Source of the DNA: an uncultured bacterium
GTDB taxonomy: Bacteria > Bacillota_I > Bacilli_A > RFN20 > CAG-826
Direction of reading: 5' to 3'
Assembly (NCBI GenBank): GCA_949293175.1
Contig: CASFCI010000002.1
Span: 27,765 to 91,764 of the forward strand
Length of the DNA: 64,000 nucleotides
The notes under the pieces were generated by a model. That model did no database searches and was not told the DNA's origin. It saw only the letters and a program-made list of their open reading frames with translations. Below, in pieces: positions 15,743-51,403 of this stretch. Position 1 is the stretch's first letter. Each line of letters begins with the position of its first letter. Both the position numbers and the translations under genes were made by a program.

Positions 15743-15887
15743 AAGTCTCCTATCTTATATGCGATTTCTATGAAACCGCTTTCACAAAGTATTTTATTTA
15801 TCCGATAAATGGCCGTCAATGGGTAATGAAATCGATTTCTTAGGAATCAATCGGGAAACAATAAAGAGGTTTCTTTCTTCCTAGGAA

Positions 15888-15920
15888 AGGCAAAAAGAAA
15901 GCCGCCGGTTTCGCGGCGGC
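15888..15920 (-). terminator. Rho-independent terminator downstream of the lipoprotein gene 15933..17450
   Basis: On the minus strand, the hairpin GCCGCCG-CGAAAC-CGGCGGC is followed by TTTCTTTTT. Confidence 0.55.
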
Positions 15921-15932
15921 CTGTCGCTAGCT

Positions 15933-17450
15933 TCAGCAAGAGAGCAAGGCGTAGGATGTGCCGGATGTCGTCGTAAGGCCGACGAACATGTGCGTTCCGT
16001 TGATGGTCGATATCCCGCCGGTGGAGGCCGTGGCGTTATCTAGCCCAAGGGTCAACAGCGTTTCGTCGGGGGTCATGATCTTGGCCTCGGAGGAGGTTAT
16101 GGCGCAGGCGACGCCCGAGCCGACGACCGGGTAGATCACGCCATCTATCTCCTGCAGCTTCATATCGGGCCCGTAGACGTAACCGGTGCCGGTCGAGTTG
16201 ATCAGAATCGCGTGGTCATAGCTATATTGCGATGCCAGCAGCGTGTAGTGTCCTTTGGAGATGAGCACTTCGCCCTCGGAGGAGAGGACGCTGGCGTATT
16301 CGCCATCCTTGGCATAGTAGCAATCCATGCCGTAGATCGGGGTGATTGAGTCGTAGGCGGAGAGGTCGGCGGTTAGGCGCATCGAGCGGTCGAAGGCCAT
16401 CTTCAGGGTCGAGGAATAGTAGCCCCCGTCGGTGGCGTATAGGCCGCTAAGCAGGCTGGGGTTCATCTCCTCGATGATCTTGCCAGAGGAGTTTATCAGG
16501 ACCTTCTTGCTCTCCATGACGGCCTTCGAGCCCCTTATCTCGTAGATCGAGACCCCGGCGAGGTCGGTTTTTCCCTTCCGGGAGGAGTAGGCCCCGATGT
16601 AGGTTCCCAATAGGTAATCGAGGTTTATGTCCTTCAGGTCGCCGGAAAGCAGGTCGAAGGAGAGCGACCTCAGGTCGTATTTGGTCCCGTTTTGGTAATA
16701 GGAGTATTCCTTGGCGTCGTCGGGGAGTGCGAACGACTCCTGGATGAGCAGCTTCCCGTCGACCACGACCGCCGTGTTGATGTTGAGGTCGAAGCTCGGG
16801 GCGGGATAGGAACTGTACACCTCGCCCCGCTCGTCGATTACGTAGACGAAGTAGTCGCCGACGCTTATGCGGTATCCATCTAGTCCCAGCAGCGCCCCAT
16901 CGATGGCGCTGGGCCAGCGCTCGGAGTCGAAGATGCTCTGATTCGAGATCGAGGGCGCATCCTTCCCTTTCTCATATCTGGCGTAGGTGAGCGATCCGGA
17001 GTCGGTGATGACGACCTCGTCGTGTCCGTTCTCCTCGAAGGTGAACCAAGAAGATGAGGAATGCAGCTTGTTCCCGAACCCATCGACCAGGGAATACCCG
17101 CCATTGGATTCCTGGAAATAGAGCAGGAACCCGCATAGGGGGCTCACCCTGACCTCATAGTTAGGCGTCTCCGAGAATGAGGCGATGTGCTCCCCGTTTA
17201 TTAGCGAATAGGCCAAGAGCCCATCGCCGCCGCGGGCGATCGCGCAGCCCTTGGCGAGCCCGTTGTCGACGACGTCGAGGTTGGAAAGCGAGGAGGGGGC
17301 GGAGGCGGTCCAATCGCCTTCCTCTGGCATGGCGGCGGCGTTGGCCTCGGCCAGATCCGATGGCAAAAGCGGCTTCTTCGCGCCTTGGCAGGAACATAGA
17401 AGCAAGGTGGCGGACAATACGACGATGGTAATGTTTTTCTTCATTTTCAC
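15933..17450 (-). CDS. Lipoprotein, hypothetical
   Basis: MKMKKNITIVVLSATLLLCSCQ shows a lipobox. No domain was recognised. Confidence 0.5.
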   Translation of the reverse strand: MKMKKNITIVVLSATLLLCSCQGAKKPLLPSDLAEANAAAMPEEGDWTASAPSSLSNLDVVDNGLAKGCAIARGGDGLLAYSLINGEHIASFSETPNYEVRVSPLCGFLLYFQESNGGYSLVDGFGNKLHSSSSWFTFEENGHDEVVITDSGSLTYARYEKGKDAPSISNQSIFDSERWPSAIDGALLGLDGYRISVGDYFVYVIDERGEVYSSYPAPSFDLNINTAVVVDGKLLIQESFALPDDAKEYSYYQNGTKYDLRSLSFDLLSGDLKDINLDYLLGTYIGAYSSRKGKTDLAGVSIYEIRGSKAVMESKKVLINSSGKIIEEMNPSLLSGLYATDGGYYSSTLKMAFDRSMRLTADLSAYDSITPIYGMDCYYAKDGEYASVLSSEGEVLISKGHYTLLASQYSYDHAILINSTGTGYVYGPDMKLQEIDGVIYPVVGSGVACAITSSEAKIMTPDETLLTLGLDNATASTGGISTINGTHMFVGLTTTSGTSYALLSC

Positions 17451-25940: not shown

Positions 25941-26876
25941 ATGGTTACTTTGCTAGACGTCGCCCGGAAGGCTAAGGTATCGGTTGCCACGGTTTCCCGG
26001 GTCATCAACGGAAAGCCTTTCGTCAAGCAGGAAGTGCGCGAGCGGGTGAACAAGGCCTGCGAAGAGCTGGGGTACATGAAGGACCTCAACGCCGAGCGGC
26101 TTCGGCGCGGCGTTCACTCAGACATCGGCATCATCGCCCCCTACCCGGATTGGCCGATAGCCACTTCAGTCTACAACGGCCTCTACCGCGCCTCGGCCAT
26201 CGCCGGGGCGTCCATCGTATTGACCTCATCCTTCTCCGATCCGGGGAAGGAAAGGGAATGCTTCGCCTCGCTTTTGGCATCTAAGGTAAAGGCGATAATC
26301 TTCTCGCCCTCGACCGCGGAAAACGCCGAGGCGGTCGCCCTTTGCCACCGCAATGGGGTCAAGGCGATACAGGCCATGCGGAAAGCCTACGACGACGTGC
26401 CGGCCGTCTGCTTCGACATCGACGCCGCGATCGACATGGCCTGCTCCTTGCTGAAGCAATCGGGGGTTAGGCGCCCGCTTTTCGTCTACCCATCGCCCAA
26501 GTTCCTCTCATGCGGCAACGCCTGCTCCCGCTTCTACCTGAATATGGGAGAGGAGGGCGCCCTTTGCATCGACGAGTGCAAGGTCAGCAATGAGCCGGAA
26601 TCCATCGGGAAGGCCATTGAGCTCTACTCCCCCGACGGCATAGTGTGCGGCTCCGACGCCTCCTGCGCCGCGGCCTACCATTACCTGATGTCGGCCAATA
26701 GGGAGGTTCCGCTGATCGGCTTTGGCAACGACGAGTGGAAGAAGACGCTCGGGATAACCGCGGTCGACTTCGAGAGCGAGGAATTCGCCCTGGCCCTGCT
26801 TGCGGCGCTGCAAGAGGAGGAGCCGACCGACAAGAAAGTCGCGCCGCTGTTGCACCGGCGGTCATTCGGCTTCTAG
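25941..26876 (+). CDS. LacI-family transcriptional regulator (CcpA-like candidate)
   Basis: N-terminal HTH LLDVARKAKVSVATVSRVING. The periplasmic-binding-protein-like core is 311 aa. Confidence 0.8.
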   Translation: MVTLLDVARKAKVSVATVSRVINGKPFVKQEVRERVNKACEELGYMKDLNAERLRRGVHSDIGIIAPYPDWPIATSVYNGLYRASAIAGASIVLTSSFSDPGKERECFASLLASKVKAIIFSPSTAENAEAVALCHRNGVKAIQAMRKAYDDVPAVCFDIDAAIDMACSLLKQSGVRRPLFVYPSPKFLSCGNACSRFYLNMGEEGALCIDECKVSNEPESIGKAIELYSPDGIVCGSDASCAAAYHYLMSANREVPLIGFGNDEWKKTLGITAVDFESEEFALALLAALQEEEPTDKKVAPLLHRRSFGF

Positions 26877-38393: not shown

Positions 38394-39593
38394 CTAGTCG
38401 CGTAGAAGCCTAAGCGATGCGACTTTGTAGATGCCCTCTTCGTAGGCGACGTCGACCTCGCCCTGGATCAGGGGGCGGAGGTAATCGCGGAAGCATTGAC
38501 TGAGCCCGTGGACGTTATGCAGGAACTCGGGCGGGATCTTCTTCTCGACGTTGGCGATGCCCTCGACCGATTTGAGCTCATATTCGACCTGGTACGGCTG
38601 ACTGCTGATCCTCCTGATGGCCACCATCTTGCCCGACTCCCCCGCGACTGCCGCCTTGCAGGCCACCCGGGCGCACTCCACGGCCTCATCGCGGTCGACC
38701 TTGGAGACCAGTATCGGGAAGGCGCGCTGCGGGAGGGAGAGCTCGATCGAGCGGGTCGGGAGCCCGAGGTTCTGCTCCACCCGGCGGGAAAGCGCGTCGG
38801 CCGCACCGCCGAGCTGGATGTGGCCGAAGGCGTCGACCCGGGCCGAGGAGGTGTCGCGGGGGAAGACGATGCCCTCGCTTATGGCGACCACGCAGTGCCC
38901 CTTGGCGTCGTGGACCTTCTTGACCTCCTTGTAGAACTCATCGAGGTCGAAGGCGTCCTCCGGCAGGTATATGAGGTCGGGGCGGTAAGGCGCGGGGAGG
39001 AGGTCGACCGAGGCGGTCAGCCAGCCGGCGTTGCGCCCCATCACCTCGACGACGAACACCTTGCCCTTCTTGTAGCAGGAGGCGTCGACGCAGACCGACT
39101 TGACGGTGTTTATGACGTATTTGGCGGCCGAACCGTAGCCGATGCAGTGGTCGGTCGCGGAGAGGTCGTTGTCGACCGTCTTGGGGACCCCGATGACCTT
39201 GACGTCCATGCCCTTGGAGGCGAATAGGCGCGAGAGCTTGGAGCAGGTGTCCATCGAGTCGTTGCCCCCGTTGACGAGGATGTAGCCTATGTCGTGCTTC
39301 CTAACGGTCTTGATTATCGATTGGTAGCGCTCGTCCTCGAGATCGGAGGGCAGTTTGTAGCGGGTAGAGCCCAGGGCCGCCCCCGGGGTCTGCAGCAGCA
39401 ATTCGATCTGCTCGGGGTCCTCCTTGCTTAGATCGGCGAGGTCGTCGTAAAGCAGTCCCTCGATGCCGTGCAGGCTCCCGAGGACCTTGCTTACCTCCTT
39501 ATGCTCCCCCGCTTCCTTTATCGCCCCGTATAGGGACGAGTTGATGACCGCGGTCGGTCCGCCCGACTGCAGGTACGCCAATGCTTTAGCCAT
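38394..39593 (-). CDS. pfk: 6-phosphofructokinase, long form, with a PPi-type active-site signature
   Basis: PFK fold (GGPTAVIN...GGNDS...PKTVDNDL). Asp at the Gly104-equivalent and Lys at the Gly124-equivalent positions are the residues reported to specify PPi use. The start MAKALAY is preceded by AAGGAG. Confidence 0.8.
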   Translation of the reverse strand: MAKALAYLQSGGPTAVINSSLYGAIKEAGEHKEVSKVLGSLHGIEGLLYDDLADLSKEDPEQIELLLQTPGAALGSTRYKLPSDLEDERYQSIIKTVRKHDIGYILVNGGNDSMDTCSKLSRLFASKGMDVKVIGVPKTVDNDLSATDHCIGYGSAAKYVINTVKSVCVDASCYKKGKVFVVEVMGRNAGWLTASVDLLPAPYRPDLIYLPEDAFDLDEFYKEVKKVHDAKGHCVVAISEGIVFPRDTSSARVDAFGHIQLGGAADALSRRVEQNLGLPTRSIELSLPQRAFPILVSKVDRDEAVECARVACKAAVAGESGKMVAIRRISSQPYQVEYELKSVEGIANVEKKIPPEFLHNVHGLSQCFRDYLRPLIQGEVDVAYEEGIYKVASLRLLRD

Positions 39594-39654
39594 GTCTGAC
39601 TCCTTATCTAGTAAAGCAGTATACACTAGAAGCAAGTCCGATGAACGCTAGATT

Positions 39655-39668
39655 TGTAAGCGGTTACA
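39655..39668. promoter_or_regulatory. cre (CcpA-binding catabolite responsive element) TGTAAGCGGTTACA
   Basis: Perfect match to the consensus TGWAANCGNTNWCA. It sits within a duplicated block of about 25 nt, AACGCT.G.TTTGTAAGCGGTTACA. Confidence 0.5.
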
Positions 39669-40033: not shown

Positions 40034-40047
40034 TGTAAGCGGTTACA
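40034..40047. promoter_or_regulatory. cre TGTAAGCGGTTACA, second copy, 37 nt upstream of the udk-like ATG
   Basis: Identical 14-mer and flanks to the 39655 copy. Confidence 0.5.
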
Positions 40048-40083: not shown

Positions 40084-41733
40084 ATGCCATTTTCCGTCAC
40101 CATCGGCAACAACACGACAACGTATCAGAAGAAGATGAGCCTGCTTGAGATACTAAACGGCTCCAACGAAGACAAATCGATCATCGCCGCCCGGGTCAAC
40201 AACCGGGTCAGGGAATTGACCTATGAGGTCAACTACGACTGCGAGATACAGTGGCTCACCGTCAAGGACGGCGACGCCACCAAGACCTACGAGGCGTCGC
40301 TGCGCTTCATCACCGCGATGGCCTTCCGCCGCGCCTACCCCGATCTGAAGATAAGGTTCGCCTACAACGTCTCCCGCTGCGTCTCGATCCACCTGCTCAC
40401 CCCGGGCTACACCGCCAACACGGCGATGCTGCTCAAGGTCAGCCACGAGATGGAGCGCATCATCGCCTCCGACTACCCCCTCAAGCGGATGGTCGTCCCC
40501 ATTGAGAAGGCCCGCGAGGTATATGAGCAGCTCGGCTACGAGGACAAGCTCGCCCTTTTGCCCTACCGCCCGGAGAAGACCGCCCACCTCTATGAGTGCG
40601 ACGGCTTCTACGACTACATGTACTCCCACATGGTCCCCTCGACCGGCTACATCAAGAAGTACAAGCTCCGCCTCTACGCGCCGAGCTTCCTATTGCAGTA
40701 CCCGCGCGCCGAGGCTGGCGGCGAGATCCCGCCCTTCCAGGACGCCCCGACCTTCGGCAGGGTCCTCAAGGAATCCCACGACTGGGCCAAGATCGTCGGC
40801 TCCGACACGGTCGCCGGCATCAACAAGTCCATCGAGCGCCGCGGGCCAATCGAGTTCATCAACCTCTGCGAGGCGCGCCACAACCGGATGCTTTGCGAGC
40901 TCGGACAGATGATCGAGGACTCCATCGACGAGGTGAGCCTGATCTGCATCGCCGGGCCCTCAAGCTCAGGCAAGACCACCTTCGCCAACCGCCTCCGCAT
41001 CGAATTGCTCGCCCGCGGAATCAACCCGATCCGCATCTCGATCGACGACTATTACCTCGAGAAGGACAAGATCCCGAAGGGGGAGAACGGGGAGATCGAC
41101 CTCGAGTCCATCGAGGCGCTCAACATCCCGCTTTTCAACCAGAACATGGTCGACCTCATCGCCGGGGAGACCGTCACATTGCCGAAGTTCGACTTCCAGT
41201 CCGGCAAGTCGGTCCCGGGCAGGACGCTCCACGTCGAGCGCGGCCAGCCCATCATCATCGAGGGCATCCACGCTCTCAACGACCGGATGACCGTCGACAT
41301 CCCGAAGTCGGCCAAGTTCAAGATCTTCATCGCCCCCCAGGCCCAGATCAACCTCGACGACCACACCCCGCTCTCGCTCACCGACCTGCGCCTCATCCGC
41401 CGGATCGTGCGCGACTACAAGTTCCGCAACGCCTCGGCCGAGGAGACCATCGGCATGTGGCCTAGCGTCCGGGCGGGCGAGTTCAAGTGGATCTACGACA
41501 CCCAGGAGGGCTCCGACTACGTCTACAACTCGATGCTCAGCTACGAGCTCCCGGTCATGAAGAAATACGCCTTGCCGCTGCTTAAGGGGATCGAGGAGAC
41601 ATCTCCATGCTTCCCCACCGCCATGCGGCTGGTGAGGATGCTCAAGTTCTTCGTCGACATGGACGACCAATGGGTACCATCGAACTCGCTGATGAGGGAA
41701 TTCATCGGCGGCTCGTGCTACGAGGACGTGTGA
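40084..41733 (+). CDS. Uridine/cytidine kinase-like P-loop kinase fused to an N-terminal TGS (ThrRS/GTPase/SpoT-like) domain
   Basis: GPSSSGKTTFANRL P-loop, the IIIEGIHAL motif and a beta-grasp-like N-terminus. Preceded by GGAGG. Confidence 0.6.
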   Translation: MPFSVTIGNNTTTYQKKMSLLEILNGSNEDKSIIAARVNNRVRELTYEVNYDCEIQWLTVKDGDATKTYEASLRFITAMAFRRAYPDLKIRFAYNVSRCVSIHLLTPGYTANTAMLLKVSHEMERIIASDYPLKRMVVPIEKAREVYEQLGYEDKLALLPYRPEKTAHLYECDGFYDYMYSHMVPSTGYIKKYKLRLYAPSFLLQYPRAEAGGEIPPFQDAPTFGRVLKESHDWAKIVGSDTVAGINKSIERRGPIEFINLCEARHNRMLCELGQMIEDSIDEVSLICIAGPSSSGKTTFANRLRIELLARGINPIRISIDDYYLEKDKIPKGENGEIDLESIEALNIPLFNQNMVDLIAGETVTLPKFDFQSGKSVPGRTLHVERGQPIIIEGIHALNDRMTVDIPKSAKFKIFIAPQAQINLDDHTPLSLTDLRLIRRIVRDYKFRNASAEETIGMWPSVRAGEFKWIYDTQEGSDYVYNSMLSYELPVMKKYALPLLKGIEETSPCFPTAMRLVRMLKFFVDMDDQWVPSNSLMREFIGGSCYEDV

Positions 41734-41841: not shown

Positions 41842-41872
41842 AAAAAAGGCCTTCCCCGAAGGGAGGCCTTTT
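41842..41872 (-). terminator. Rho-independent terminator after the lipoprotein operon
   Basis: On the minus strand, the hairpin GGCCTCCC-TTCG-GGGAAGGCC is followed by TTTTTT. Confidence 0.5.
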
Positions 41873-41880
41873 GGCTTAGT

Positions 41881-43332
41881 TTACTCGGCGGCGTAGCTCG
41901 GCAAAGTCGTCGAGTTAATGTCGGAGAGGGTGAAGCGGAGGTAGTAATCGACACCTTGGATCGAGAAGGAGGCCAATACGGTCTCGATCGCGGTCTTATC
42001 CTCGTTGAGGGTGACGACCAGGCGGTCGGTCGAGCCCTCTAGGGCGCCCGACTGCACGCCGAGCATCCCGTTATCGAAGTAGGAGCCGAGTCCGCTGACG
42101 ACCAACTCCTCGGCTTCGTAGGTCCTATCGCCGGTCTTCTTGAACAAGGCCGGGTTGATGGAGGAGAAGTCGGGGCCGAGGCCCTCGAAGGAATCGATGG
42201 TGTAGACCGCGGAGCTCGACAGGGTCACGACGTGCCAATCCCATCCGAGGTCGCCGTAGTCGTACTGATAGACGTGGTAGAGCTTGTCGGAGGGGTCATA
42301 GACCGCCTTGTAATCGTAGTCGTCGCCACCCTGGTAGGGATGTTCGTCCCCGGGGGCGGAGCGCTGGGCGTAATAGGCCATGTCGTCGCGGATGAAGTAG
42401 CCGGTGGTCCAGGTGGTGCGCTCGCCATCCCAAGAGGAGAGGAACTCCTTGTTGTAGGTGTAGGAGTCGACGCCGTCGAGGCACTTGAGGGCCGCGGCTA
42501 GGTCGGGGTTGTCGTTGGCGTAGGGCTGCAGATGGGGGACCGGCTGCTCGCCTAGGCTCCGGTCGTAGGTGACGGTGAACTCATTCGTCCTGGTGAAGCG
42601 GCCCTCCTCGCGGAGCTCCGAGATCTCGAAGGCCAATGAGTCGATCCCGCCGTCCTCGCCGAGGTTGAGGGCGATGTCGTCGACGTAGTTGATCGAGGTC
42701 CCGCCATAGCAGGTGACCACGAACTGCGCCTTGGCGCCCTGCAGGTGCAGGCTGCCGTCTTCTTCCTCGATGATGTCGCTGGCCCTGATGTAGTCCCAGG
42801 GGTTGCGGAATAGCGAGTCGAAGGCATACGGGAGGTAGACCCCGGTGGTGTCGTTGTAGTCGGAGAGGTAGGAGCTATTGACCTCGTTGTCGATGGTGAT
42901 CGACTCCTTGATCGCGAGCCCGGTCTCCTCGTCGCGGAAGTAATAGGCCTTCGGGTCGGAGTAGCCCCACTCGGTCGATTCGACCTTGTCGGTGAGCTTG
43001 TAGTCGTAGGCATTGTAGCTGTACTTCTCGGTGTAGGCCCGCACCGCGCCGTATTGGTGGACGATGTCGTAGGTCTTTCCCTGATGGATGCCGACCTCAA
43101 GCGGGTCGTCGCGGTAGACGTCGGTGGCCATCTCGATGTGGGCCCCGTGGGTCTGATGCTGGAGCGAGGCGAGGGCCTTCTGGGCCTTCTGGGTGCCAAC
43201 CGGCAGCTCCGGGAGGGTCACTTCGCCGCCGTCCTCGGAGGAAGATCCCGGCGTCGAGGAGGAACCATTACCCCCGCAGGCGACGAGGGAGAGGGCCATC
43301 AAAGGGGCCAATATGAGCAATTTAGCGTTCAT
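41881..43332 (-). CDS. Lipoprotein, hypothetical. Paralogous to 43345..44604.
   Basis: Lipobox LVACGG. The shared block DNPDLAAALKCL matches DNPELKSALQGL. Confidence 0.5.
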   Translation of the reverse strand: MNAKLLILAPLMALSLVACGGNGSSSTPGSSSEDGGEVTLPELPVGTQKAQKALASLQHQTHGAHIEMATDVYRDDPLEVGIHQGKTYDIVHQYGAVRAYTEKYSYNAYDYKLTDKVESTEWGYSDPKAYYFRDEETGLAIKESITIDNEVNSSYLSDYNDTTGVYLPYAFDSLFRNPWDYIRASDIIEEEDGSLHLQGAKAQFVVTCYGGTSINYVDDIALNLGEDGGIDSLAFEISELREEGRFTRTNEFTVTYDRSLGEQPVPHLQPYANDNPDLAAALKCLDGVDSYTYNKEFLSSWDGERTTWTTGYFIRDDMAYYAQRSAPGDEHPYQGGDDYDYKAVYDPSDKLYHVYQYDYGDLGWDWHVVTLSSSAVYTIDSFEGLGPDFSSINPALFKKTGDRTYEAEELVVSGLGSYFDNGMLGVQSGALEGSTDRLVVTLNEDKTAIETVLASFSIQGVDYYLRFTLSDINSTTLPSYAAE

Positions 43333-43344
43333 TTTCTTTCCTCC

Positions 43345-44604
43345 TTATTCAGCGAAGCTGGTATCGAGCCAGCTCGGCATCGCGGTCGAGCCGACCTCGG
43401 AGAAGCTCGCGGTGATCGAATACGGGCCGTACTGGAAGTCGTAGTAGCCGAGGCTCACCTCGGACATGGTCTCGCCATCTAGGCTCACGTAGGCATAGAA
43501 GGGCTCGATCGCAGAGACCGAGAAGGCGGATGGCACGAGGTCGCGGCTTAATAGCGGCACGGCGTCGGGCAGGAAGGCGTAGACGCCCTCGGACTGCTTC
43601 TGCAGCACCTCCGGCGCGATCTTGGAGTAGTTCGGCAGGTAGTTGGCGATCTGGTAGTTGATGCCTATGGTCGACCAAGAGGAGGTCGAGGCGGAGTAGC
43701 GGTAGCCGGTCGCCCTGCCGCCGGCGCCCTGGACGTAGTAGGTATCGCCGTCCACCGGGTAGGGGAGGCTCGGGTCGCCGTGGATGTAGAGGCTATCGCC
43801 GGAATAGTAATAGGTGTAGCCGAGGCGGATGTCGTTCTCCGCGATGGTCACGGTGTAGTTGGTGCCAAGCCCCTGCAAGGCGGACTTCAGCTCGGGGTTG
43901 TCCTGCGTGCCGACCGAGATGCGGCCGAAGCTCTCCTTGAGGATCTCGAAGGAGAGGTCGACGGTCAGGGTGGACTCGCCGATGAACATGCCCGAGGTGC
44001 TCTCGATGGCGTCGGGGCGGATTGGGCAGGTGAACTCCAGGGTGACCTTGGAATCGACCGGGTTCTCCAGGTCGTAGCCGGAGAAGGTGGCCGAGGTGAC
44101 CGGGAAGTCGAGCCCGAAGTAGGCGTTGAGCATCAGCTCGGCCTTCTGGCTCGAGAGGGCGGATCCCTGTATGTCGGAGGGGCTGATGTAGTCGAAGGGG
44201 TCGTAATAGGTCGAGGCGTAGACCAGGTCCATGCCGAAGGTCTTGTCGACGACCGACTCGAGCTGGTTCTGGTAGTTGAGGGTGTCGTGGTAGGAATACC
44301 CGTCGCTCCCCTCGTAGTGGATGGTGTCGGAGGCCAGCCCATGGTCGCGGATGGCCTCGCGGTCCTCGCCGTCGAAGCTCACCGTGCCGTAGTCGCGGTC
44401 GACGGAGTAGGTGGCGACGCTATTAAGCGACTCCAGACCCTCGCCGTAGTCGGTGGTGAGGACGGCGCTGCCCTTCACGTTATAAGGCAGCTGGAACAGC
44501 CGCAGGTACTCCGGCCCTTCCTCGGCGGAGGAGGGGAGGGCGGCGGAGGTCGCGGCTAGGGGCAATAGAAGCGGCAGCCCCAATGCCAGATATGTCTTTC
44601 TCAT
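43345..44604 (-). CDS. Secreted protein, hypothetical, of the same family
   Basis: SPase I-type signal peptide MRKTYLALGLPLLLPLAATSAA. Confidence 0.5.
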   Translation of the reverse strand: MRKTYLALGLPLLLPLAATSAALPSSAEEGPEYLRLFQLPYNVKGSAVLTTDYGEGLESLNSVATYSVDRDYGTVSFDGEDREAIRDHGLASDTIHYEGSDGYSYHDTLNYQNQLESVVDKTFGMDLVYASTYYDPFDYISPSDIQGSALSSQKAELMLNAYFGLDFPVTSATFSGYDLENPVDSKVTLEFTCPIRPDAIESTSGMFIGESTLTVDLSFEILKESFGRISVGTQDNPELKSALQGLGTNYTVTIAENDIRLGYTYYYSGDSLYIHGDPSLPYPVDGDTYYVQGAGGRATGYRYSASTSSWSTIGINYQIANYLPNYSKIAPEVLQKQSEGVYAFLPDAVPLLSRDLVPSAFSVSAIEPFYAYVSLDGETMSEVSLGYYDFQYGPYSITASFSEVGSTAMPSWLDTSFAE

Positions 44605-46100
44605 CCTTGGTAGCTCCCTAGATATAGATCGAAGGTGTCGAGGACGCCATCGAGGTTGTGGGCGGTGAGGTCGGTGGTCCCGAAGTCGGAGTAGGACACG
44701 GTGCTCACGCAGTCGCCGCCGAAGGCCTCGGAGGCGAAGTATAGCTTGAAGACCGGGTATCCCGCCTCATCGATGCTGACCTCAAGCCGGTCGAAGCCGA
44801 AGGCAAGGGTGGCCGTCGATTCGACGTACCAGCTGCTCATGCGGGTCGGGTAGTCGCCGACGCCGAAGACGGCGGCCATGATGTCGAAGCAGAAGTAGTG
44901 GTCGATGTACGGGAAATCGGCCAGATCGAACACGTAGCCCTCATCGGCCTTCTCGAAGAAGGCGGTCGAAAGCGACTGGATGAAGGGGACGGCTCCGTTG
45001 TCGACGGTGTAGGCGTCGGCCGATAGCGTCGCGGCGTAGCCAGTCCCGCCGTTGGTGCCCGGGGTCACGCCGATCTGGTAGTATCCGTCGGCCCCCGCCG
45101 CTTCCGCGGTGAAGTAGGCCAGTCCGGTGTAGGTCGTGCCATAGGAGGCATCGGTCAAGGGCAGGTCGGTGATCATGAGCTTGCGCCCGCCGAACTTGCC
45201 GGCCAGGTCGTAGTATGACTTGTACTCGCCGCGGTTATCGATCTCGGTCCCATCGACCAAGGTCGTCTTGACGTTGGTGGTGAAGTTCAGCCCCTGGACG
45301 CCATCGCGGAGCTTCTCGAAGGAAGCGGTGAGCGTGGAGAGGTCCTCCTCGCCAAGCGAGGGGGTATACGGGGTGAGCGGGGTCACCGCGTCGATGGCGG
45401 AGAGCTCGACGAGGTAGTCCTCGGCCATGTAGCCGTAGGCGTCGGCGAGGACGTTGGCGAACTTCGCCTGCTTCGGGGTGCCGTTGGCGTCAACGGTCAG
45501 TTCGAAGCCCTCGATCAGCTGACGCGAGGTGAGGTAGTCGAAGCTGTACGGGTTAATGGTATATAGGAATTTCGACATCCCCGGGGAGATGAGGGCGGTC
45601 AATAGCTCGGTCCCCTTCAGGGTGTAGCCATCCTCGGCGGTCTCCACGGTGAAGTAGCGCGAGAAGTTGGAGGCGGTTATGCCGGCGAGGGCCTTGTAGC
45701 CGGAATCGTAGTTGCCGGCGAAGGCGACCGGGAGGTTGGAGTCGTCGGTGACCTCGGTCGACTTGACGACGTTGTCGAGCCCAAGGGCGTTGAGCATGAC
45801 GTAGCCCTCGGGGGAGGAGGTGACGTCGGACTGCAATAGCGGCATCTTGGTGCCGGTGAGGCAGAGGTCGCTGTGCCTGGCGGTGGAGCTGACCTCATCG
45901 GTGGCGGTGAAGGTCGCGCCCCCGAAGGCGGCGTAGCGCGGGGTGATGGTCGCCACCGACTTGATCGGGGCGGCGAAGAAGGAGGCGATGCTGCTTATCT
46001 GCGCATCGGTCAGCCCCACTTCCTCGGCTGTCGCGCCGGTGGCGGAGCAGCCGCAAAGGGCGAGCCCGCAAAGGGCAATGGCGGAATTTATCTTCTTCAT
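44601..46100 (-). CDS. Lipoprotein, hypothetical
   Basis: Lipobox LALCGCS. ATGA overlap with the downstream gene. Confidence 0.5.
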   Translation of the reverse strand: MKKINSAIALCGLALCGCSATGATAEEVGLTDAQISSIASFFAAPIKSVATITPRYAAFGGATFTATDEVSSTARHSDLCLTGTKMPLLQSDVTSSPEGYVMLNALGLDNVVKSTEVTDDSNLPVAFAGNYDSGYKALAGITASNFSRYFTVETAEDGYTLKGTELLTALISPGMSKFLYTINPYSFDYLTSRQLIEGFELTVDANGTPKQAKFANVLADAYGYMAEDYLVELSAIDAVTPLTPYTPSLGEEDLSTLTASFEKLRDGVQGLNFTTNVKTTLVDGTEIDNRGEYKSYYDLAGKFGGRKLMITDLPLTDASYGTTYTGLAYFTAEAAGADGYYQIGVTPGTNGGTGYAATLSADAYTVDNGAVPFIQSLSTAFFEKADEGYVFDLADFPYIDHYFCFDIMAAVFGVGDYPTRMSSWYVESTATLAFGFDRLEVSIDEAGYPVFKLYFASEAFGGDCVSTVSYSDFGTTDLTAHNLDGVLDTFDLYLGSYQG

Positions 46101-47575
46101 CAGTTGGCCCTCCTTACGGTGATGGTGGCGCCTTCGCTATTGAGCGCGCCGACCTCGAAGGTCAGCCCGAGCTCAGGGCGGACGGCCCCATTGCCGTCGA
46201 AGTGGAAGTCGTGGTAGAAGCCATCGACCAGCGATTCCTCACCGAAGACGTCGCCCTCATGCCAGAGGTTGTCGTCGGTGATGTACATCGAGTTGGTCAT
46301 CTGGCGGTTGGCGCCGGTGCTGTCGAGCAGCTGGACGAGCGCGTAGTTGCCGGCGATGCCGTAGACCGCGTTGGTGTTGCGGCCGGAGTTGGTGTAGGCG
46401 AAGTCGTAGGCCAGGTCGGAGTTGAAATCCGGCTCGCCATAATATGGGTAGAACCCGTCTTCTCCGCCGGCGACTAGGCGGGAATCAACCTTGTAGACCC
46501 TGATGGCCGGCTCGGTCAAAGAGGAGCCGGAGTTAAGCCCGGTCGGGGTGAAGTAATCGATGAGCAGGTACTCGCCGAAGACGCCGGTGTCCTCGTTGGA
46601 GAGCAATAGGCTCTCGCCCGGGGCGAGGGTGTAGGTCGCCTCGGTTTCAAGCGAGGAGGCGATGATCTTGGTCGGCTCGGTCCATCCGAGCAGGTACTTG
46701 GTGAACGGGTTGTGGTCGGAGATGCCCTCCTCGGTGACGTCGGTGTAGCCAAGCGGGGCGCGGAGGTTGCCCTGCAGGTCGCCGGTCTGGTCGGAGTATT
46801 CCGGCACGCCGAGCAGGTCGGCGATGGCCTTGATGAAGCGGACGTTCATCGGGTCCTGGGTGCCGAAGCTGGCCCCGAGCGACCCGCACATCCACTCGGC
46901 GGCGTTGGCCTTCTCGGTCGAGACGAGCTGATCGTACATGAAGGAGGCGACCAGCTGGTCCATGGTCTCGTCGCCATAGGTCCAGGTGCCGTTATAGGCC
47001 GGGAAGGGGTTGGCGACGATGAGGTTGTCGATCTTCCCGTCGCCGTCGGAATCGTAGTCGGCGATGGAGTTCCCTTCCTCTACCCAGGCGTCGATCGCCT
47101 CATCCAATGTGGAGGCGATGACCGGGGAGGAGCCGGTGCTGTATAGGTTGTTGAGGAAGTCCTCGAAGCTGGTCGAGAGGGTGACCGGGGCCTCAACCGA
47201 GCCGGAGAGGTTGAGCTTGCCGCCGCTAGATTGCTGATAGTAGCTCAGGGCGGTGTAGCCAACGGGGCTCGACTCGAAGCCGGAGTCGAGGGCCAGTATG
47301 TCCGAGGCGGTAATCTTGAAGACGTCATCGCTGAAGCTGAAGGGGATGACCAATACCTTCTGGTCGCCCTCGCTTTCCATTGCCCCATTGCCCTGCGATT
47401 GGCGCAGCAGCGAAGCCGGCGATCCCTGCTTCTCTTCCTGGCTGGTGCCGGAGGAGTCGCTTCCCTCGCCATCCCCCAGGGACGAGGTCCCTGCGGGCTC
47501 GCAAGCGGCCAATAGGAGGGCGGATAGGGCCAGCGGGAAGATGGCCCGCGTTAACCTTTCCTTTTTCTTTGACAT
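46100..47575 (-). CDS. Lipoprotein, hypothetical. Its N-terminus is reminiscent of M6/InhA-like proteases but has no HExxH.
   Basis: Lipobox LLAACE, plus KVLVIPFSFSDD and a DYDSDGDGKIDN calcium-loop-like motif. Confidence 0.45.
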   Translation of the reverse strand: MSKKKERLTRAIFPLALSALLLAACEPAGTSSLGDGEGSDSSGTSQEEKQGSPASLLRQSQGNGAMESEGDQKVLVIPFSFSDDVFKITASDILALDSGFESSPVGYTALSYYQQSSGGKLNLSGSVEAPVTLSTSFEDFLNNLYSTGSSPVIASTLDEAIDAWVEEGNSIADYDSDGDGKIDNLIVANPFPAYNGTWTYGDETMDQLVASFMYDQLVSTEKANAAEWMCGSLGASFGTQDPMNVRFIKAIADLLGVPEYSDQTGDLQGNLRAPLGYTDVTEEGISDHNPFTKYLLGWTEPTKIIASSLETEATYTLAPGESLLLSNEDTGVFGEYLLIDYFTPTGLNSGSSLTEPAIRVYKVDSRLVAGGEDGFYPYYGEPDFNSDLAYDFAYTNSGRNTNAVYGIAGNYALVQLLDSTGANRQMTNSMYITDDNLWHEGDVFGEESLVDGFYHDFHFDGNGAVRPELGLTFEVGALNSEGATITVRRAN

Positions 47576-47652
47576 GTGTTTCTCCTGTTAGCTTTCTTCA
47601 AAAAAGCATAATAAAGATATAACAAAGCGAAAAAATGTGTATCCCCAAATTT

Positions 47653-47666
47653 TGTAAGCGCTTACA
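47653..47666. promoter_or_regulatory. cre-like perfect palindrome TGTAAGCGCTTACA in a divergent promoter region
   Basis: Matches TGWAANCGNTNWCA. It is flanked by A7 and T7 homopolymer runs. A -35-like TTGCAC lies 11 nt downstream. Confidence 0.45.
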
Positions 47667-47712
47667 CAAAAAAATCTTGCACTTTTTTTAAATTAATCTT
47701 TAATAGTCCTGC

Positions 47713-49350
47713 TTGAAAGGAACTAGCAAAATAATGAAAAACAAAGGAAAAATCCTGCTGGTAGCGGTCCTAGGCGGCGCCCTTATGTCGGGCTGCGGTG
47801 GGAACGTGTCCAGCAGCGAGTCCACCGACGGCGGAGGAACCGCTTCATCGACTGAATCTTCCACCGCCACATCGACCTCGGAAACCTCTTCCGAGGATTT
47901 GGCCGAGGAGCTTTCGGACTCGACCAAGCTAAAGGAGCGGCTGCTGCTTTCCGCCGACCGTATCGTCACCTCGCGCCGGCTCTCGATCGACCTCTCAGGG
48001 ACCATCTACGACGATGGGAAGACCGAGTCGGTCTCCTTGGCCACCGAGCATGAGGGCCTCCGCACCTACACCGAGACCCCAACCGGCGGGACAGCGCGCA
48101 CCTACGTCAGCTACGCCGGCATCCTCGGAAGCGACTACTACAGCGTCGATTCGGACACATACGGCTATTCTATTCGGTATAAAGTCGCCGAAGGCGGGAC
48201 CTACGATCAGGAAGGCGCCGACGGCACCATCGAGCTCGTGCACCAGGAGACCGGTTTGAAAGGCACCCTGGCCTACGACGAAGCCCTGCTCGGGATGAGG
48301 TTCCTCCAAGGAGGGGACGTCGAGGCGACAGACCCCTGCCTGCACGAGGTGGAGTACACCGTCACCGCCACCGATGGCGGCTACGAGGCGGTCTGGGAGT
48401 CCTACTACGAGAACACCGAGACCAGCTCCGAGTACTACTACAACGCCAACTTCCTCATCATCGCCTCCTTCGATGAAGAGCTCAACCTCCTGTCGCTGCA
48501 GTCCGACGTCACCGCCGCCTTCCCCAACGAGTGGGACGCCTCGATCCACGCGCCGCTACCCACCGCCACCCCGATACACCGCCTATATGAGCTAAGCGAC
48601 ATCGTCTACGCCGAATCCTACCCGGCGACCGATCCCGCCCACCCGATACTAGCCAACCTGAATGACTACTTCGTCAGCGAGGTCACCTCGGCCTCGCTGG
48701 TCAGCTGGAACGCCTCCGGCCCCGGCGGAGCCTTCCAGGTCGGCGACACCATCCAGCTCGACGACTCGAGCATCGAATACGCCCCCTCGACCGCGCTAAA
48801 CGCCAGCTATCTAACCATCACCGGTGCCTCTGAGGATGGGGTCCTGGTCGAAACCGAGAAGATGGGCATGACCGCCACCGTCTTCGGCAAGGCCGGCACC
48901 TTCGACCTATACATCGGCGACGAGGTCAGCCCGAGGCTCGGCACCATCACCGTCACCGTCTCCGAGGTCGACACCTCCGGCGGCTCCAACGTCTCCTCGA
49001 TCGATTGGACCGGATTCGAGAGTTCCGAGGATGCCACCTCGACCGAGACCAACCCGGTTTACAACGTCACCGTCCCCTTCAACTTCAACTGGAACCAGGC
49101 TTGGGTGCGCGTCGACGACGGGACCCAGGCGATGCTAGACAAGATAATCCCGTCCTTCACCGACTCCAACGTGATGATGGTCAACTTCACGGAGGATCCT
49201 TCCATGGCCTCGGCCGGATATGCCATCATGGAGTTCTACCCGCTCATGAACAACACCACCACTACCATGACCATCACCAACCCCGATCCCAGCCAGGCCT
49301 GGGGCGTCGAGACCATCACGGTCAACTTCACCGTCGTCCCCAACGCCTAA
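47713..49350 (+). CDS. Lipoprotein, hypothetical, Thr/Ser-rich
   Basis: MKNKGKILLVAVLGGALMSGCGG lipobox. Preceded by an AT-rich promoter region. Confidence 0.5.
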   Translation: MKGTSKIMKNKGKILLVAVLGGALMSGCGGNVSSSESTDGGGTASSTESSTATSTSETSSEDLAEELSDSTKLKERLLLSADRIVTSRRLSIDLSGTIYDDGKTESVSLATEHEGLRTYTETPTGGTARTYVSYAGILGSDYYSVDSDTYGYSIRYKVAEGGTYDQEGADGTIELVHQETGLKGTLAYDEALLGMRFLQGGDVEATDPCLHEVEYTVTATDGGYEAVWESYYENTETSSEYYYNANFLIIASFDEELNLLSLQSDVTAAFPNEWDASIHAPLPTATPIHRLYELSDIVYAESYPATDPAHPILANLNDYFVSEVTSASLVSWNASGPGGAFQVGDTIQLDDSSIEYAPSTALNASYLTITGASEDGVLVETEKMGMTATVFGKAGTFDLYIGDEVSPRLGTITVTVSEVDTSGGSNVSSIDWTGFESSEDATSTETNPVYNVTVPFNFNWNQAWVRVDDGTQAMLDKIIPSFTDSNVMMVNFTEDPSMASAGYAIMEFYPLMNNTTTTMTITNPDPSQAWGVETITVNFTVVPNA

Positions 49351-49370
49351 AGCGCGAAAGGCAAAACGAA

Positions 49371-49400
49371 AACCCAGGAGCGATCCTGGGTTTTATTGTT
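49371..49400. terminator. Bidirectional rho-independent terminator
   Basis: The hairpin CCCAGGA-GCGAT-CCTGGG is followed by TTTTATTGTT. It is also preceded by an A-rich run on the opposite strand. Confidence 0.55.
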
Positions 49401-50283
49401 GCCTTAGGAAGCTAAGCGCCTCATCAAGCCACCCCTCGGCTGAGGTCCCCTTGCCAATCCCCCATCCATGCCCATCTCCGGGATAGACGCGGTAGAGGTG
49501 CCTCACCCCGCGCGATGACAACGCCCTATCGAAGGCGTCGGAGTTTATCGGCGGCACGACGTCGTCGGTTTCGGCCCGCCAGAGGAAGGTCGGCGGGTAG
49601 CCCGGGTCGACGTGCCCCTCATCGGACAGGAAGCCGGATAGGTCGTCCCGCCCCCCGGTGAACCACCGCTTGCTCGGCTCATGGGTCGGGAGGGAGAAGC
49701 TTATCACCGGATAGCCGAGTATCAGGGCTTGCGGCCTGGGGTAATCGAAGGCCTCGGCCATGTCCTTGCGGCAAATCATCGCCGACAGGTGCCCTCCGGC
49801 GGAGAAGCCTAAAAGCAAAGTCGGCAGCTTGCCGGCCTCCCGGAGGCATTCCGCCACCTGGATGACCGGCTTGGGGAAGCAGGCGTCGCCCCGGATGCCG
49901 TACCCGGCGATGTAGACGGAATAGCCCGCCTCCTGCAGCGGCCTCACGAAATCGAACCCCTCGTTGACCGAGGCGATCATCTCATATCCCCCGCCGGGGA
50001 CCACCACGGCGTTGGCCTTCGGGTTGGCTATCGGGAAATGGAGATAGCCATACTCGGTCGATTCTCGGTAGGGATGGAAGCAGCCCGGGTTTTCCTCTAT
50101 AAGGGAAACCAGGCCGGAGAATGACGGGTAGCATTCGCCCAGGCAGAAATCGGTGGCCTCGCGCAGGGTGACGCTCGGCCGGGCCGCGTAATAGGCGTCC
50201 TCCAGCGGGAGCAGCATCTTCCTCGCCCCGCGGACGTCTTCGTTCTGGAAAAGGCGCAGGACCGGGGTCTTTTCAATTCCCAT
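49393..50283 (-). CDS. Alpha/beta hydrolase (esterase/lipase-like)
   Basis: GFSAGGHLS is a GxSxG motif, with a downstream Asp and His. The start MGIEKTP is preceded by AGGAG. It overlaps the upstream gene by 11 nt. Confidence 0.6.
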   Translation of the reverse strand: MGIEKTPVLRLFQNEDVRGARKMLLPLEDAYYAARPSVTLREATDFCLGECYPSFSGLVSLIEENPGCFHPYRESTEYGYLHFPIANPKANAVVVPGGGYEMIASVNEGFDFVRPLQEAGYSVYIAGYGIRGDACFPKPVIQVAECLREAGKLPTLLLGFSAGGHLSAMICRKDMAEAFDYPRPQALILGYPVISFSLPTHEPSKRWFTGGRDDLSGFLSDEGHVDPGYPPTFLWRAETDDVVPPINSDAFDRALSSRGVRHLYRVYPGDGHGWGIGKGTSAEGWLDEALSFLRQQ

Positions 50284-51403
50284 TGGCCTGCTCCTGCTTC
50301 TTCGAGGCTGTGGCGAATCGCTGCTTCTGCAGGCCATAGGCCTCAAGCAGCTGGTGGTAATAAAGCTTGCGCATCGTGACGTAGCGGTCCCGCTCCTGCT
50401 CGGAGACGGTCGACATGTAGAGGCTGGTGAACACCTTCTCCAGCCGGAAGAAGGACTCGTAAAGCGAAAGCAGGGTCAGCGAGAAGAAGTAGTTCTTGCT
50501 CGAGTAGATCAGAAGCGGCGAGGAATGGGCGATCTCCGAGCTCATCTCGTAGACCTTGGAGTAGGAGGAAAGCCCCGCCATCCGCTGGACACCATCGCGG
50601 AAGTTCAGCTTGAACCCATCCTGCTTCTCGACGCCCTCGATGGCGTAAAGCCAGCCGTATTCGATGAAGCGCTTCATGTCCTTGCTCTTGAGGTCGTGGC
50701 CTCTCATCTCGGACTTGATCTTGACGAACTCCTCGTCGGTCTCCTCCTTGGTCTTTAGCCCCCCGCGGAAGGCGAGGGCGTAGCGCATGTGGACCAGGTA
50801 GCGCTCGATTATCGGCTTGCCGTACTTGAGCAGGCAATGGAGGATGCACTCGTTCTCGTGCAGCGTCCTCCAGGTCGAGAAGGCCTCGGTCTCGAAGCCG
50901 TTCTCCAATAGCGAGGTGACGCATTTGGCCATCTGGAAGCCCTTGTTCATGACGTCGATGACCAAGGTCTGCTGGGGATCGTTCTTCTTGTAGCGCGAAA
51001 GCATCCCCAGGATGAAGTTCAGATAGAGGTCGAGGGTCGACATCATCGGCGAGAACCGGGAGGTCAAAGACCCCATCCGGTAGGCCAGATGCTCATTGGT
51101 GAAGTACTTGTCCAGCGACACCGAGGCGAGGAACCCGATGTACTCCTGATTTCCCTTAAGCGCCTCCATCTTGGTGTTGGCGTGGGTCGCGAGGTAGAAG
51201 GAGTGCTCCGAGCAGATGTAAAGCGTGAGGGAGGCGAAGTTGATGCCGAACCTCGATATTATCGGGCTCTCCTCGCGCAGCTCGGTGGTGGCATCGAGGG
51301 CCGCCTCAAAAGCCTCCTGGATCAATCCGTAGTCGAGCGAATCCGGGACCTTGAGGGCCGAAAGGAACGCCTGATAGTCTTTTATCGGGTTTTGAATCGC
51401 CAT
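50273..51403 (-). CDS. Hypothetical protein of 376 aa, predicted largely alpha-helical. It is co-transcribed downstream of addA.
   Basis: ORF with an 18-nt gap after addA. No motif was recognised. Confidence 0.4.
   Translation of the reverse strand: MAIQNPIKDYQAFLSALKVPDSLDYGLIQEAFEAALDATTELREESPIISRFGINFASLTLYICSEHSFYLATHANTKMEALKGNQEYIGFLASVSLDKYFTNEHLAYRMGSLTSRFSPMMSTLDLYLNFILGMLSRYKKNDPQQTLVIDVMNKGFQMAKCVTSLLENGFETEAFSTWRTLHENECILHCLLKYGKPIIERYLVHMRYALAFRGGLKTKEETDEEFVKIKSEMRGHDLKSKDMKRFIEYGWLYAIEGVEKQDGFKLNFRDGVQRMAGLSSYSKVYEMSSEIAHSSPLLIYSSKNYFFSLTLLSLYESFFRLEKVFTSLYMSTVSEQERDRYVTMRKLYYHQLLEAYGLQKQRFATASKKQEQANGN

Follow-up and report, generated by a model that had tools for sequence, protein, structure and literature searches.

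Bacteria of the order RFN20 are common in the gut of animals and humans, have reduced genomes, and are uncultured, and to our knowledge almost nothing is known about their cell surface. The stretch analyzed here, referred to as the window, comprises 64,000 nucleotides (nt) of contig CASFCI010000002.1 (assembly GCA_949293175.1) and contains a row of four genes, A, B, C, and D, on the minus strand and a divergent fifth gene, E, on the plus strand, all encoding secreted proteins or lipoproteins. In a first-pass annotation made from the sequence, this locus was likened to the phase-variable surface lipoprotein families of Mollicute-like organisms, which raises the question of whether the five genes form a switchable antigen family or a conserved functional unit. 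The locus is a five-gene surface module that is conserved within, and specific to, a lineage of RFN20 Bacilli predicted to be peptidoglycan-deficient, and it looks more like one sugar-regulated surface machine than a switchable antigen family. As its function we tentatively propose, with a probability of about 0.4, a stoichiometric surface complex under a LacI/CcpA-type regulator that captures a hydrophobic or amphipathic nutrient.

Conservation of the gene module in RFN20

The order A-B-C-D was kept in each of the 13 genomes found at species level and in additional contigs from metagenomes, with one-to-one orthologs throughout and with gene spacers of ≤17 nt also in diverged orthologous loci. 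The genomes were collected with D in a profile-guided scan of one genome each for 185,579 species, and the 13 in which it was found were all metagenome-assembled genomes (MAGs) of uncultured Bacilli or Firmicutes, the named ones belonging to Alloenteromonas and Enterosoma of RFN20. E was located divergently upstream in most of the 13 and was not detected in three. The families are small, with 9 clusters for A, 8 for B, and 16 for D among 5.8 billion proteins. Since the flanking genes vary between lineages, the module is regarded as a conserved unit.

Between strains, the ratio of nonsynonymous to synonymous substitution rates (dN/dS) was 0.09 to 0.37 for all five genes, compared to 0.08 to 0.09 for the neighboring udk-like gene, which by this measure places all five genes under purifying selection. 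In locus L010 (related loci are designated by L numbers) relative to the window, the synonymous divergence (dS) was ~1.0 to 1.4 for E, D, and the alpha/beta-hydrolase gene next to E, and 0.18 for A; this mosaic along the locus indicates that diverged lineages of the species have exchanged DNA by homologous recombination.

All five proteins were present verbatim in public assemblies, and the named relatives with ≥98% identity came from a MAG of Candidatus Enteromonas (Alloenteromonas) pullicola. The host is a strain of Candidatus (Allo)Enteromonas pullicola, order RFN20, family CAG-826. Candidatus Enteromonas corresponds to the GTDB genus UBA733 within RFN20/CAG-826, with a genome of ~1.2 Mb and 57% GC (PMC8035907), and the family CAG-826 is predicted to be peptidoglycan-deficient (PMC10868615). 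With this placement and the reduced genome, the earlier description of the host as Mollicute-like is sound despite the GC content of ~60% in the window. Because the host is predicted to be wall-less with a reduced genome, lipoproteins are expected to form its exposed surface and scavenging is to be expected, with P116 of Mycoplasma (PMC10023570) as a functional precedent. A search of the literature on the genus, the order, and lipoproteins returned nothing beyond microbiome surveys and the taxonomic paper on the genus, and no account of the module or its B/C/D and E families was found. Precedents exist for each ingredient, namely, lipoprotein operons, LolA-fold lipoproteins in Gram-positive bacteria, and pseudopeptidases.

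Organization of the locus and predicted protein localization

The gene coordinates proposed in the first-pass annotation, together with the 1-nt and 4-nt overlaps, the 12-nt gap, and the clean terminator, were all reproduced in the list of open reading frames (ORFs) and in the sequence (Table 1), and the fifth lipoprotein gene was likewise found divergent on the other strand. Judged from its junctions, A-B-C-D is a translationally coupled operon. The A/B junction (cTGATGaag) has a 1-nt overlap with AGGAGG 8 nt upstream, the B/C junction (ggATGAgaa) has a 4-nt overlap, and the C/D junction, TAAggaggaaagaaaATG, i.e., TAA-GGAGGAAAGAAA-ATG, has a 12-nt gap that contains the ribosome-binding site; TGA is read as a stop codon. 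The hairpin downstream of D is palindromic and would also serve as terminator of the convergent udk-like gene. For E, both ATG at 47734 and TTG at 47713 are start candidates, of which ATG 47734 is more likely because the resulting 538-amino-acid (aa) form is the one present in the public protein collection.

With the lipobox pattern [LVIM]-x-[GAS]-C, canonical lipoboxes were recognized in A, D, and E, and the lipobox of B, LCGC, is atypical at position -2, with the cysteine missing in one B ortholog. D is predicted to be lipidated in all orthologs examined. The N-terminal cysteine is absent from C in four of four orthologs examined, and C is the sole member predicted to be non-lipidated, in all orthologs. 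The earlier description of the products as secreted proteins or lipoproteins is therefore narrowed to four lipoproteins (A, B, D, and E) and one protein, C, that is secreted only, since it has no lipobox cysteine. None of the five proteins reached a family threshold in the Pfam scan, and in the NCBIfam scan nothing exceeded the curated cutoffs, only A giving a sub-threshold match to the M6 peptidase domain. The genes lgt and lsp were not seen in the 64-kb window.

Paralogy and predicted fold of B, C, and D

Direct BLASTP comparison among the five proteins gave a single marginal match, between C and D (E = 0.003), so that the paralogy of these two becomes clear only through orthologs and profiles. 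Orthologs of C and D cross-matched down to E = 1e-11, and hhalign comparison of the C and D profiles reached 99.9% probability (E = 4e-31, 377 columns). In this full-length profile-profile match, DNPDLAAALKCL (D, aa 274-285) aligned with DNPELKSALQGL (C, aa 235-246); the motifs quoted earlier as a sign of paralogy are thus present and align. On this profile evidence, C and D are full-length paralogs. B is probably a third, distant paralog, its profile matching that of D with 97% probability (E = 1e-10) and the combined C+D profile with 95.8% (E = 7e-9, 321 collinear columns), and pairwise identity among the three is 18 to 26%. The claim of at least two paralogs in the operon is certain for C and D and probable for B. 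E was unrelated to A-D once signal peptides had been trimmed.

The structure of D was predicted confidently, with a mean predicted local distance difference test score (pLDDT) of 87.3 and a predicted template modeling score (pTM) of 0.78. The best structural matches of the model were LprF, LprG, and LppX and LolA and LolB, as returned by two methods including Foldseek. According to this model, D contains a LolA/LprG/LppX-type half-barrel, that is, the open beta half-barrel with helices on the concave side that is typical of LolA and LppX_LprAFG. The model of B was poor (pLDDT 49), yet it returned the same families as that of D. At the sequence level, the D family (17 members) matched no Pfam family at E ≤ 1, LolA and LppX_LprAFG included, and the profiles of D, B, and E had no meaningful match in the PDB. 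The N-terminal and C-terminal halves of D did not form a detectable sequence repeat (hhalign probability 5.8%), and tandem LolA domains are therefore not claimed for D. A UniRef label, "DUF3298 domain-containing," attached to a 98%-identical copy of C was not reproduced by Pfam at E ≤ 1 and was not used.

Protein A, an inactivated M6 peptidase homolog

Protein A matched the M6 domain model TIGR03296 of NCBIfam at E = 3e-12 over profile positions 5 to 275 of 286, with a score of 47 bits against a curated cutoff of 110.8. The family profile of A matched immune inhibitor A (InhA, PDB 4yu5) at E = 2.7e-9, and distant matches of A carry PF05547. In the alignment, the zinc motif HExxHxxGxxD is replaced by KAIADLLGVPE (aa 249-259, nt 46799-46831): true M6 relatives read YIHEMGHVFGLQDYYDY and A reads FIKAIADLLGVPEYSD at the aligned position, with the His, Glu, His, and downstream Asp all gone. 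The glycine of the motif and a DxDxDG calcium-type loop are retained. HExxH was absent from all 12 readable A orthologs, the replacement residues differing among them. By these alignments, A is a conserved membrane-anchored pseudopeptidase of the M6 (InhA-type) family, which cannot cleave by the canonical mechanism because all three zinc ligands are lost.

Other M6 paralogs adjoining the module in other genomes keep the motif IHE[QT]GH..G..DYY. Directly downstream of D, an M6 lipoprotein paralog with intact HExxH was found in L003, L017, L018, L022, and L024, and L003 carries two M6 copies (2645-5125 and 14140-16704), one of them on the E side and both with HExxH intact. These paralogs are larger than A (700 to 900 aa), and some contain Big_2 immunoglobulin-like domains. 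A further M6-like gene borders the module in L023, and another follows E in L074 (1-1748), the motif having been read in the five loci named before.

The main alternative role can be built on these neighbors and on the M6 homolog that heads the operon. B, C, and D would be protein-binding subunits that position or allosterically control M6-type peptidases, serving the extracellular capture and degradation of proteins or peptides, and the dead A would be a substrate-binding decoy or an adaptor for the active M6 paralogs that adjoin the module in L003 (two), L017, L018, L022, and L024. The LolA-like lipoprotein GerS, activating the amidase CwlD, provides a Firmicutes precedent, and the conserved surface residues of the D family are polar, as a protein-binding role would allow. 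We nevertheless consider this role rather unlikely, as no active M6 gene adjoins the module in the window genome or its closest relatives, and three paralogous LolA-fold subunits exceed the need of a single activator.

The shared A/E promoter region and the cre operator

The region between A and E contains a perfect cre-type palindrome, TGTAAGCGCTTACA, which matches the operator pattern TGWAANCGNTNWCA. Four palindromic sites of this pattern occur in the window, all of them intergenic, against 0.01 expected. The three other sites precede the genes for a GH81 beta-1,3-glucanase-like lipoprotein, phosphofructokinase (pfk), and a TGS/uridine-kinase-like protein (udk-like), and the four together suggest a compact carbon-status regulon. 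The cre upstream of A lies at -91 to -134 in the window and in L001, L003, and L005-L016, and it is retained even where the proteins of a related locus have no more than ~40% identity; more distant genera lack it at the equivalent position. A LacI-family regulator of 311 aa is encoded in the window and scored 66 bits against the CcpA equivalog cutoff of 442; the cre-type palindromes are candidate binding sites for it. From the conserved operator we infer that a CcpA-like regulator controls the module via cre.

The hexamer TTGCAC between cre and the T7 run is conserved, and E may be transcribed from a promoter with this hexamer as its -35 element. The promoter elements are only conjectured, because a scan with the sigma-70 consensus found no promoter in the A/E intergenic region. 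The palindrome itself had been noticed in the first-pass annotation, where it was described as flanked by A7 and T7 runs; it stands in the divergent promoter, with both runs located on its E side and two A6 runs on its A side.

The conserved cre, shared in the window with the GH81 beta-1,3-glucanase lipoprotein and pfk, also bears on a second alternative, in which a saccharolytic bacterium without a wall would use the module as a surface complex to harvest carbohydrates, capturing glycans or glycolipids much as surface glycan-binding lipoproteins do, with repression or activation by CcpA depending on the supply of sugar. The invariant Asn, Asp, Arg, and aromatic residues of the D family would suit such a ligand, and glycolipids are bound by LprG (PDB 3mha, 'LprG bound to PIM'), one of the proteins that the D model matched best. 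Neither a carbohydrate-binding nor a glycoside-hydrolase domain was detected in the five proteins, however, no sugar transporter is linked to the locus, and the fold matches are carriers of lipids and lipoproteins, which makes glycan harvesting quite unlikely.

Sequence variation of the promoter tracts

Phase variation was addressed by aligning the A/E intergenic region of six distinct haplotypes, i.e., the window, the type MAG L012, L005-L008 (mutually identical), L009, L010, and L011. The A7 and T7 runs differed among them by substitution only (A6+T, A8, T8, and T5AT), the T7 run being interrupted or extended in this way in L011, L010, and L012, and the cre-TTGCAC-tract spacing was constant. 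Sister species carried A6 and T6 runs at the same place, which suggests an AT-rich promoter architecture. The sole intergenic insertion-deletion polymorphism was found in the 5' leader of A (~47590-47606), ~20 to 30 nt before the A start, with the forms GAA----GAAAG (window), GAA--AGGAAAG (L005), and an A6/A7 run (L009 and L012). There was no recombinase or invertase gene adjoining the locus, and no tandem coding repeats were noted in the module genes. A metagenome-wide pattern scan for the cre-TTGCAC-tract arrangement returned 49 unrelated contigs, 0 of them with the operon.

The first-pass annotation had proposed a phase-variable lipoprotein family, which would be switched ON and OFF by slippage of the A7/T7 promoter tracts. 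In its favor, the T7 run lies just past the conserved TTGCAC, so that a change in length would alter the spacing of a promoter with this possible -35 element, and the host is Mollicute-like. With tracts this short, changed among the six haplotypes by substitutions alone at constant spacing, and with no recombinase nearby, such switching is very improbable, although the comparison of haplotypes, made above the level of individual reads, rejects low-frequency slippage less strictly. The analogy to multigene families is likewise not supported: the search for further family members found none beyond the five genes and no extra copy of any of them in the 64-kb window, and a single module of one-to-one orthologs, with dN/dS of 0.09 to 0.37 and with no repeats in the coding regions, shows no multigene expansion.

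Variability of the orphan lipoprotein E

By sequence comparison, the orphan lipoprotein E is conserved in its N-terminal part, and its C-terminal part is exchanged between strains. It has a Ser/Thr-rich stalk, and its relatives comprise 11 representatives among 1.84 billion proteins in an exhaustive HMMER scan. E was the most divergent of the five members between strains, with 72.8% identity between the window and L010, compared to 94.5% for A. Between L001 (5199-6328) and L014, the DNA encoding the C-terminal ~350 aa had no detectable similarity, and the rest of the locus was 98% identical. The replaced distal part spans ~1.1 kb, in another species than that of the window, and looks like a cassette-type replacement between strains. 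Positive selection on E was rejected (dN/dS of 0.14 to 0.37), and the high divergence is better explained by recombination and segment replacement.

The variability of E could also be read as that of the immunodominant component in a host-interaction or antigenic surface coat that has no transport role, comparable to the tandem lipoproteins of Staphylococcus aureus (Lpl/Csa, DUF576). This reading appears distinctly improbable. An expanding antigen family would not be expected to show strict one-to-one orthology, an invariable gene order, and purifying selection, which speak for a molecular function that has been conserved, the structural matches to staphylococcal proteins were weaker than those to LprG and LolA, and both the non-lipidated member and the dead peptidase would be left unexplained.

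A possible carrier complex at the cell surface

The function that we favor, capture of a hydrophobic or amphipathic nutrient by a stoichiometric complex, would start from the divergent promoter region, which carries a LacI/CcpA-type operator (cre) and drives E in one direction and the coupled genes A-B-C-D in the other; cre would tie expression to carbon status. The products of the coupled genes would be made in near-stoichiometric amounts and would assemble on the membrane, which no wall covers. There, the LolA-fold protein C would act as the soluble carrier and its paralogs D and B as anchored receivers, binding and handing over a hydrophobic or amphipathic molecule from the gut, possibly a lipid, a glycolipid, or an acylated compound. 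A, as a dead peptidase, would be a non-catalytic binding or scaffold subunit. This arrangement of a soluble carrier and an anchored paralog is likened to LolA/LolB, and the type of cargo to that of LprG/LppX.

Several points weigh against nutrient capture of this kind. The module has no linked membrane transporter. The structural match of D spans only ~130 to 160 of ~440 folded residues, with template modeling scores (TM-scores), normalized to the target, of 0.35 to 0.5. The LolA fold is, moreover, not diagnostic of lipid carriage, as the role of GerS, a protein of Clostridioides difficile with this fold, is to activate an amidase (bioRxiv 10.1101/2025.01.13.632879). The residues that do not vary in the D family are for the most part polar or aromatic (N149, N177, D180, N215, R248, N275, D340, D420, and several Y, W, and F), so that a sugar-containing or protein ligand is at least as fitting as a pure lipid. 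Finally, the LacI-family gene of the window is not a CcpA equivalog.

A narrower version of the proposal is an undescribed machine with which wall-less gut Bacilli acquire nutrient lipids or glycolipids by means of LolA-fold proteins. In it, the secreted shuttle C loads its cargo in the environment and then passes it to the membrane-anchored D and B on a scaffold of A; we regard this version as unlikely. If true, the machine would have evolved independently of Mycoplasma P116, and its hand-over would be of the LolA/LolB kind, outside a single-membrane cell. The broader carrier function, if true, would explain the supply of membrane components or other hydrophobic nutrients in a commensal without a wall, and it would place the LolA superfamily in a further setting, outside cells with a single membrane. 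For annotation, four new protein families are defined, and the label "phase-variable antigen" is corrected as unsupported.

Other features of the window

The window is rich in orphan lipoproteins, as a wall-less cell would predict, and the three further lipobox-bearing ORFs listed in Table 1 are all unrelated to A-E. The secreted ORF at 1688-4489 lies in a block of 40.6% GC (2001-4000) within a genome of ~60% GC, and this region may be recently acquired DNA. The alpha/beta-hydrolase ORF downstream of E overlaps the upstream DUF5677 gene; because its 317-aa form is not in the public collection and a 296-aa product is called in other strains, the true start is probably downstream, near 50283. 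In the distant lineage L004 (7934-10421), the module is followed by genes for a TetR regulator and MCRA, a fatty-acid hydratase, a link to lipids that may be coincidental.

Table 1. Positions of the module genes, regulatory elements, and other features in the window
Feature	Position	Strand	Description
Gene A	46100-47575	minus	491 aa; lipobox LAAC (Cys25); predicted inactivated M6 homolog
Gene B	44601-46100	minus	499 aa; probable lipoprotein, LCGC (Cys18); probable distant paralog of C and D
Gene C	43345-44604	minus	419 aa; secreted, type I signal peptide, no lipobox
Gene D	41881-43332	minus	483 aa; lipoprotein, LVAC (Cys19); beta-rich
Gene E	47734-49350	plus	538 aa; lipoprotein, MSGC (Cys21); divergent from A-D
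Hairpin terminator after D	41844-41872	minus	12-bp GC-rich stem and T-run, 9 nt past D
Hairpin terminator after E	49369-49394	plus	Common to E and the convergent alpha/beta-hydrolase gene
cre-type palindrome	47653-47666		Perfect; between A and E
A7 run	47668-47674	plus	1 nt past cre, E side
TTGCAC	47677-47682		Possible -35 element of E
T7 run	47683-47689	plus	Directly after TTGCAC
cre palindrome	15771-15784		Upstream of the GH81 beta-1,3-glucanase-like lipoprotein gene (12620-15742)
cre palindrome	39655-39668		Upstream of pfk (38394-39635)
cre palindrome	40034-40047		Upstream of the udk-like gene (40084-41733)
LacI-family regulator	25941-26876		Candidate binder of cre-type palindromes
Lipobox-bearing ORF	12-1676		No Pfam family
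Lipobox-bearing ORF	12620-15742		GH81 beta-1,3-glucanase-like
Lipobox-bearing ORF	15933-17450		No Pfam family
Secreted ORF	1688-4489		933 aa; no Pfam match
Alpha/beta-hydrolase ORF	49393-50346		317 aa; Peptidase_S9 / BD-FAE

Comparison with known systems

The Vlp, Vsa, and Vsp proteins of Mycoplasma are phase-variable surface lipoprotein families of Mollicutes. The module is similar to them in encoding surface lipoproteins of a wall-less relative within the Bacillota and in its homopolymer runs in the promoter region, but it has no gene array, no coding repeats, no between-strain polymorphism of tract length, and no recombinase, and it is orthologous across genera. Protein P116 of Mycoplasma pneumoniae, a surface protein of another wall-less bacterium, extracts essential host lipids (PMC10023570). 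It is a single homodimeric protein of unrelated sequence and fold, and the functional analogy is inferential only.

The catalytic-domain sequence of the M6 peptidases (InhA, 4yu5; PF05547, TIGR03296) is common to A, which differs from them in being lipid-anchored, in lacking the additional InhA domains, in the loss of the zinc site, and in scoring below the family cutoff. A pairing of a LolA-fold lipoprotein with a hydrolase-family protein is found in another member of the Bacillota, in the GerS-CwlD system of C. difficile; here, the genes of the carrier-fold proteins are coupled to that of an M6 homolog. In contrast to GerS-CwlD, the putative partner is a dead peptidase homolog and not an amidase, and there is no relation to sporulation.

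Among the structural relatives of D, the mycobacterial lipoproteins LppX, LprG, and LprF (Pfam LppX_LprAFG; PDB 2byo, 3mh9/3mha, and 4qa8) share neither sequence similarity nor a Pfam match with it. D is approximately twice their size, with a match of only ~160 residues. Moreover, three paralogs and a pseudopeptidase stand here in place of a lipoprotein paired with a major facilitator superfamily (MFS) pump, and the host is a wall-less member of the Bacillota instead of an actinobacterium with a mycomembrane. LolA and LolB belong to the same fold superfamily and are likewise a soluble and a lipid-anchored protein, as are C and D. The module differs from them in the absence of an outer membrane and of LolCDE, in its much larger proteins, and in the lack of any sequence relationship.

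The Lpl/Csa1 proteins of Staphylococcus aureus (DUF576) are tandem paralogous lipoproteins (PMC5020093), and their fold was weakly matched by D and B (4big, 4eg9/4egd); at the sequence level, there was no match to the DUF576 model. Those proteins are expanding, near-identical ~30-kDa products of a genomic island, whereas the module described here consists of three ancient, diverged paralogs in fixed order with unrelated partners. It is one of few multi-gene surface systems conserved across RFN20 and combines a conserved pseudo-enzyme with what are predicted to be three copies of a carrier fold.

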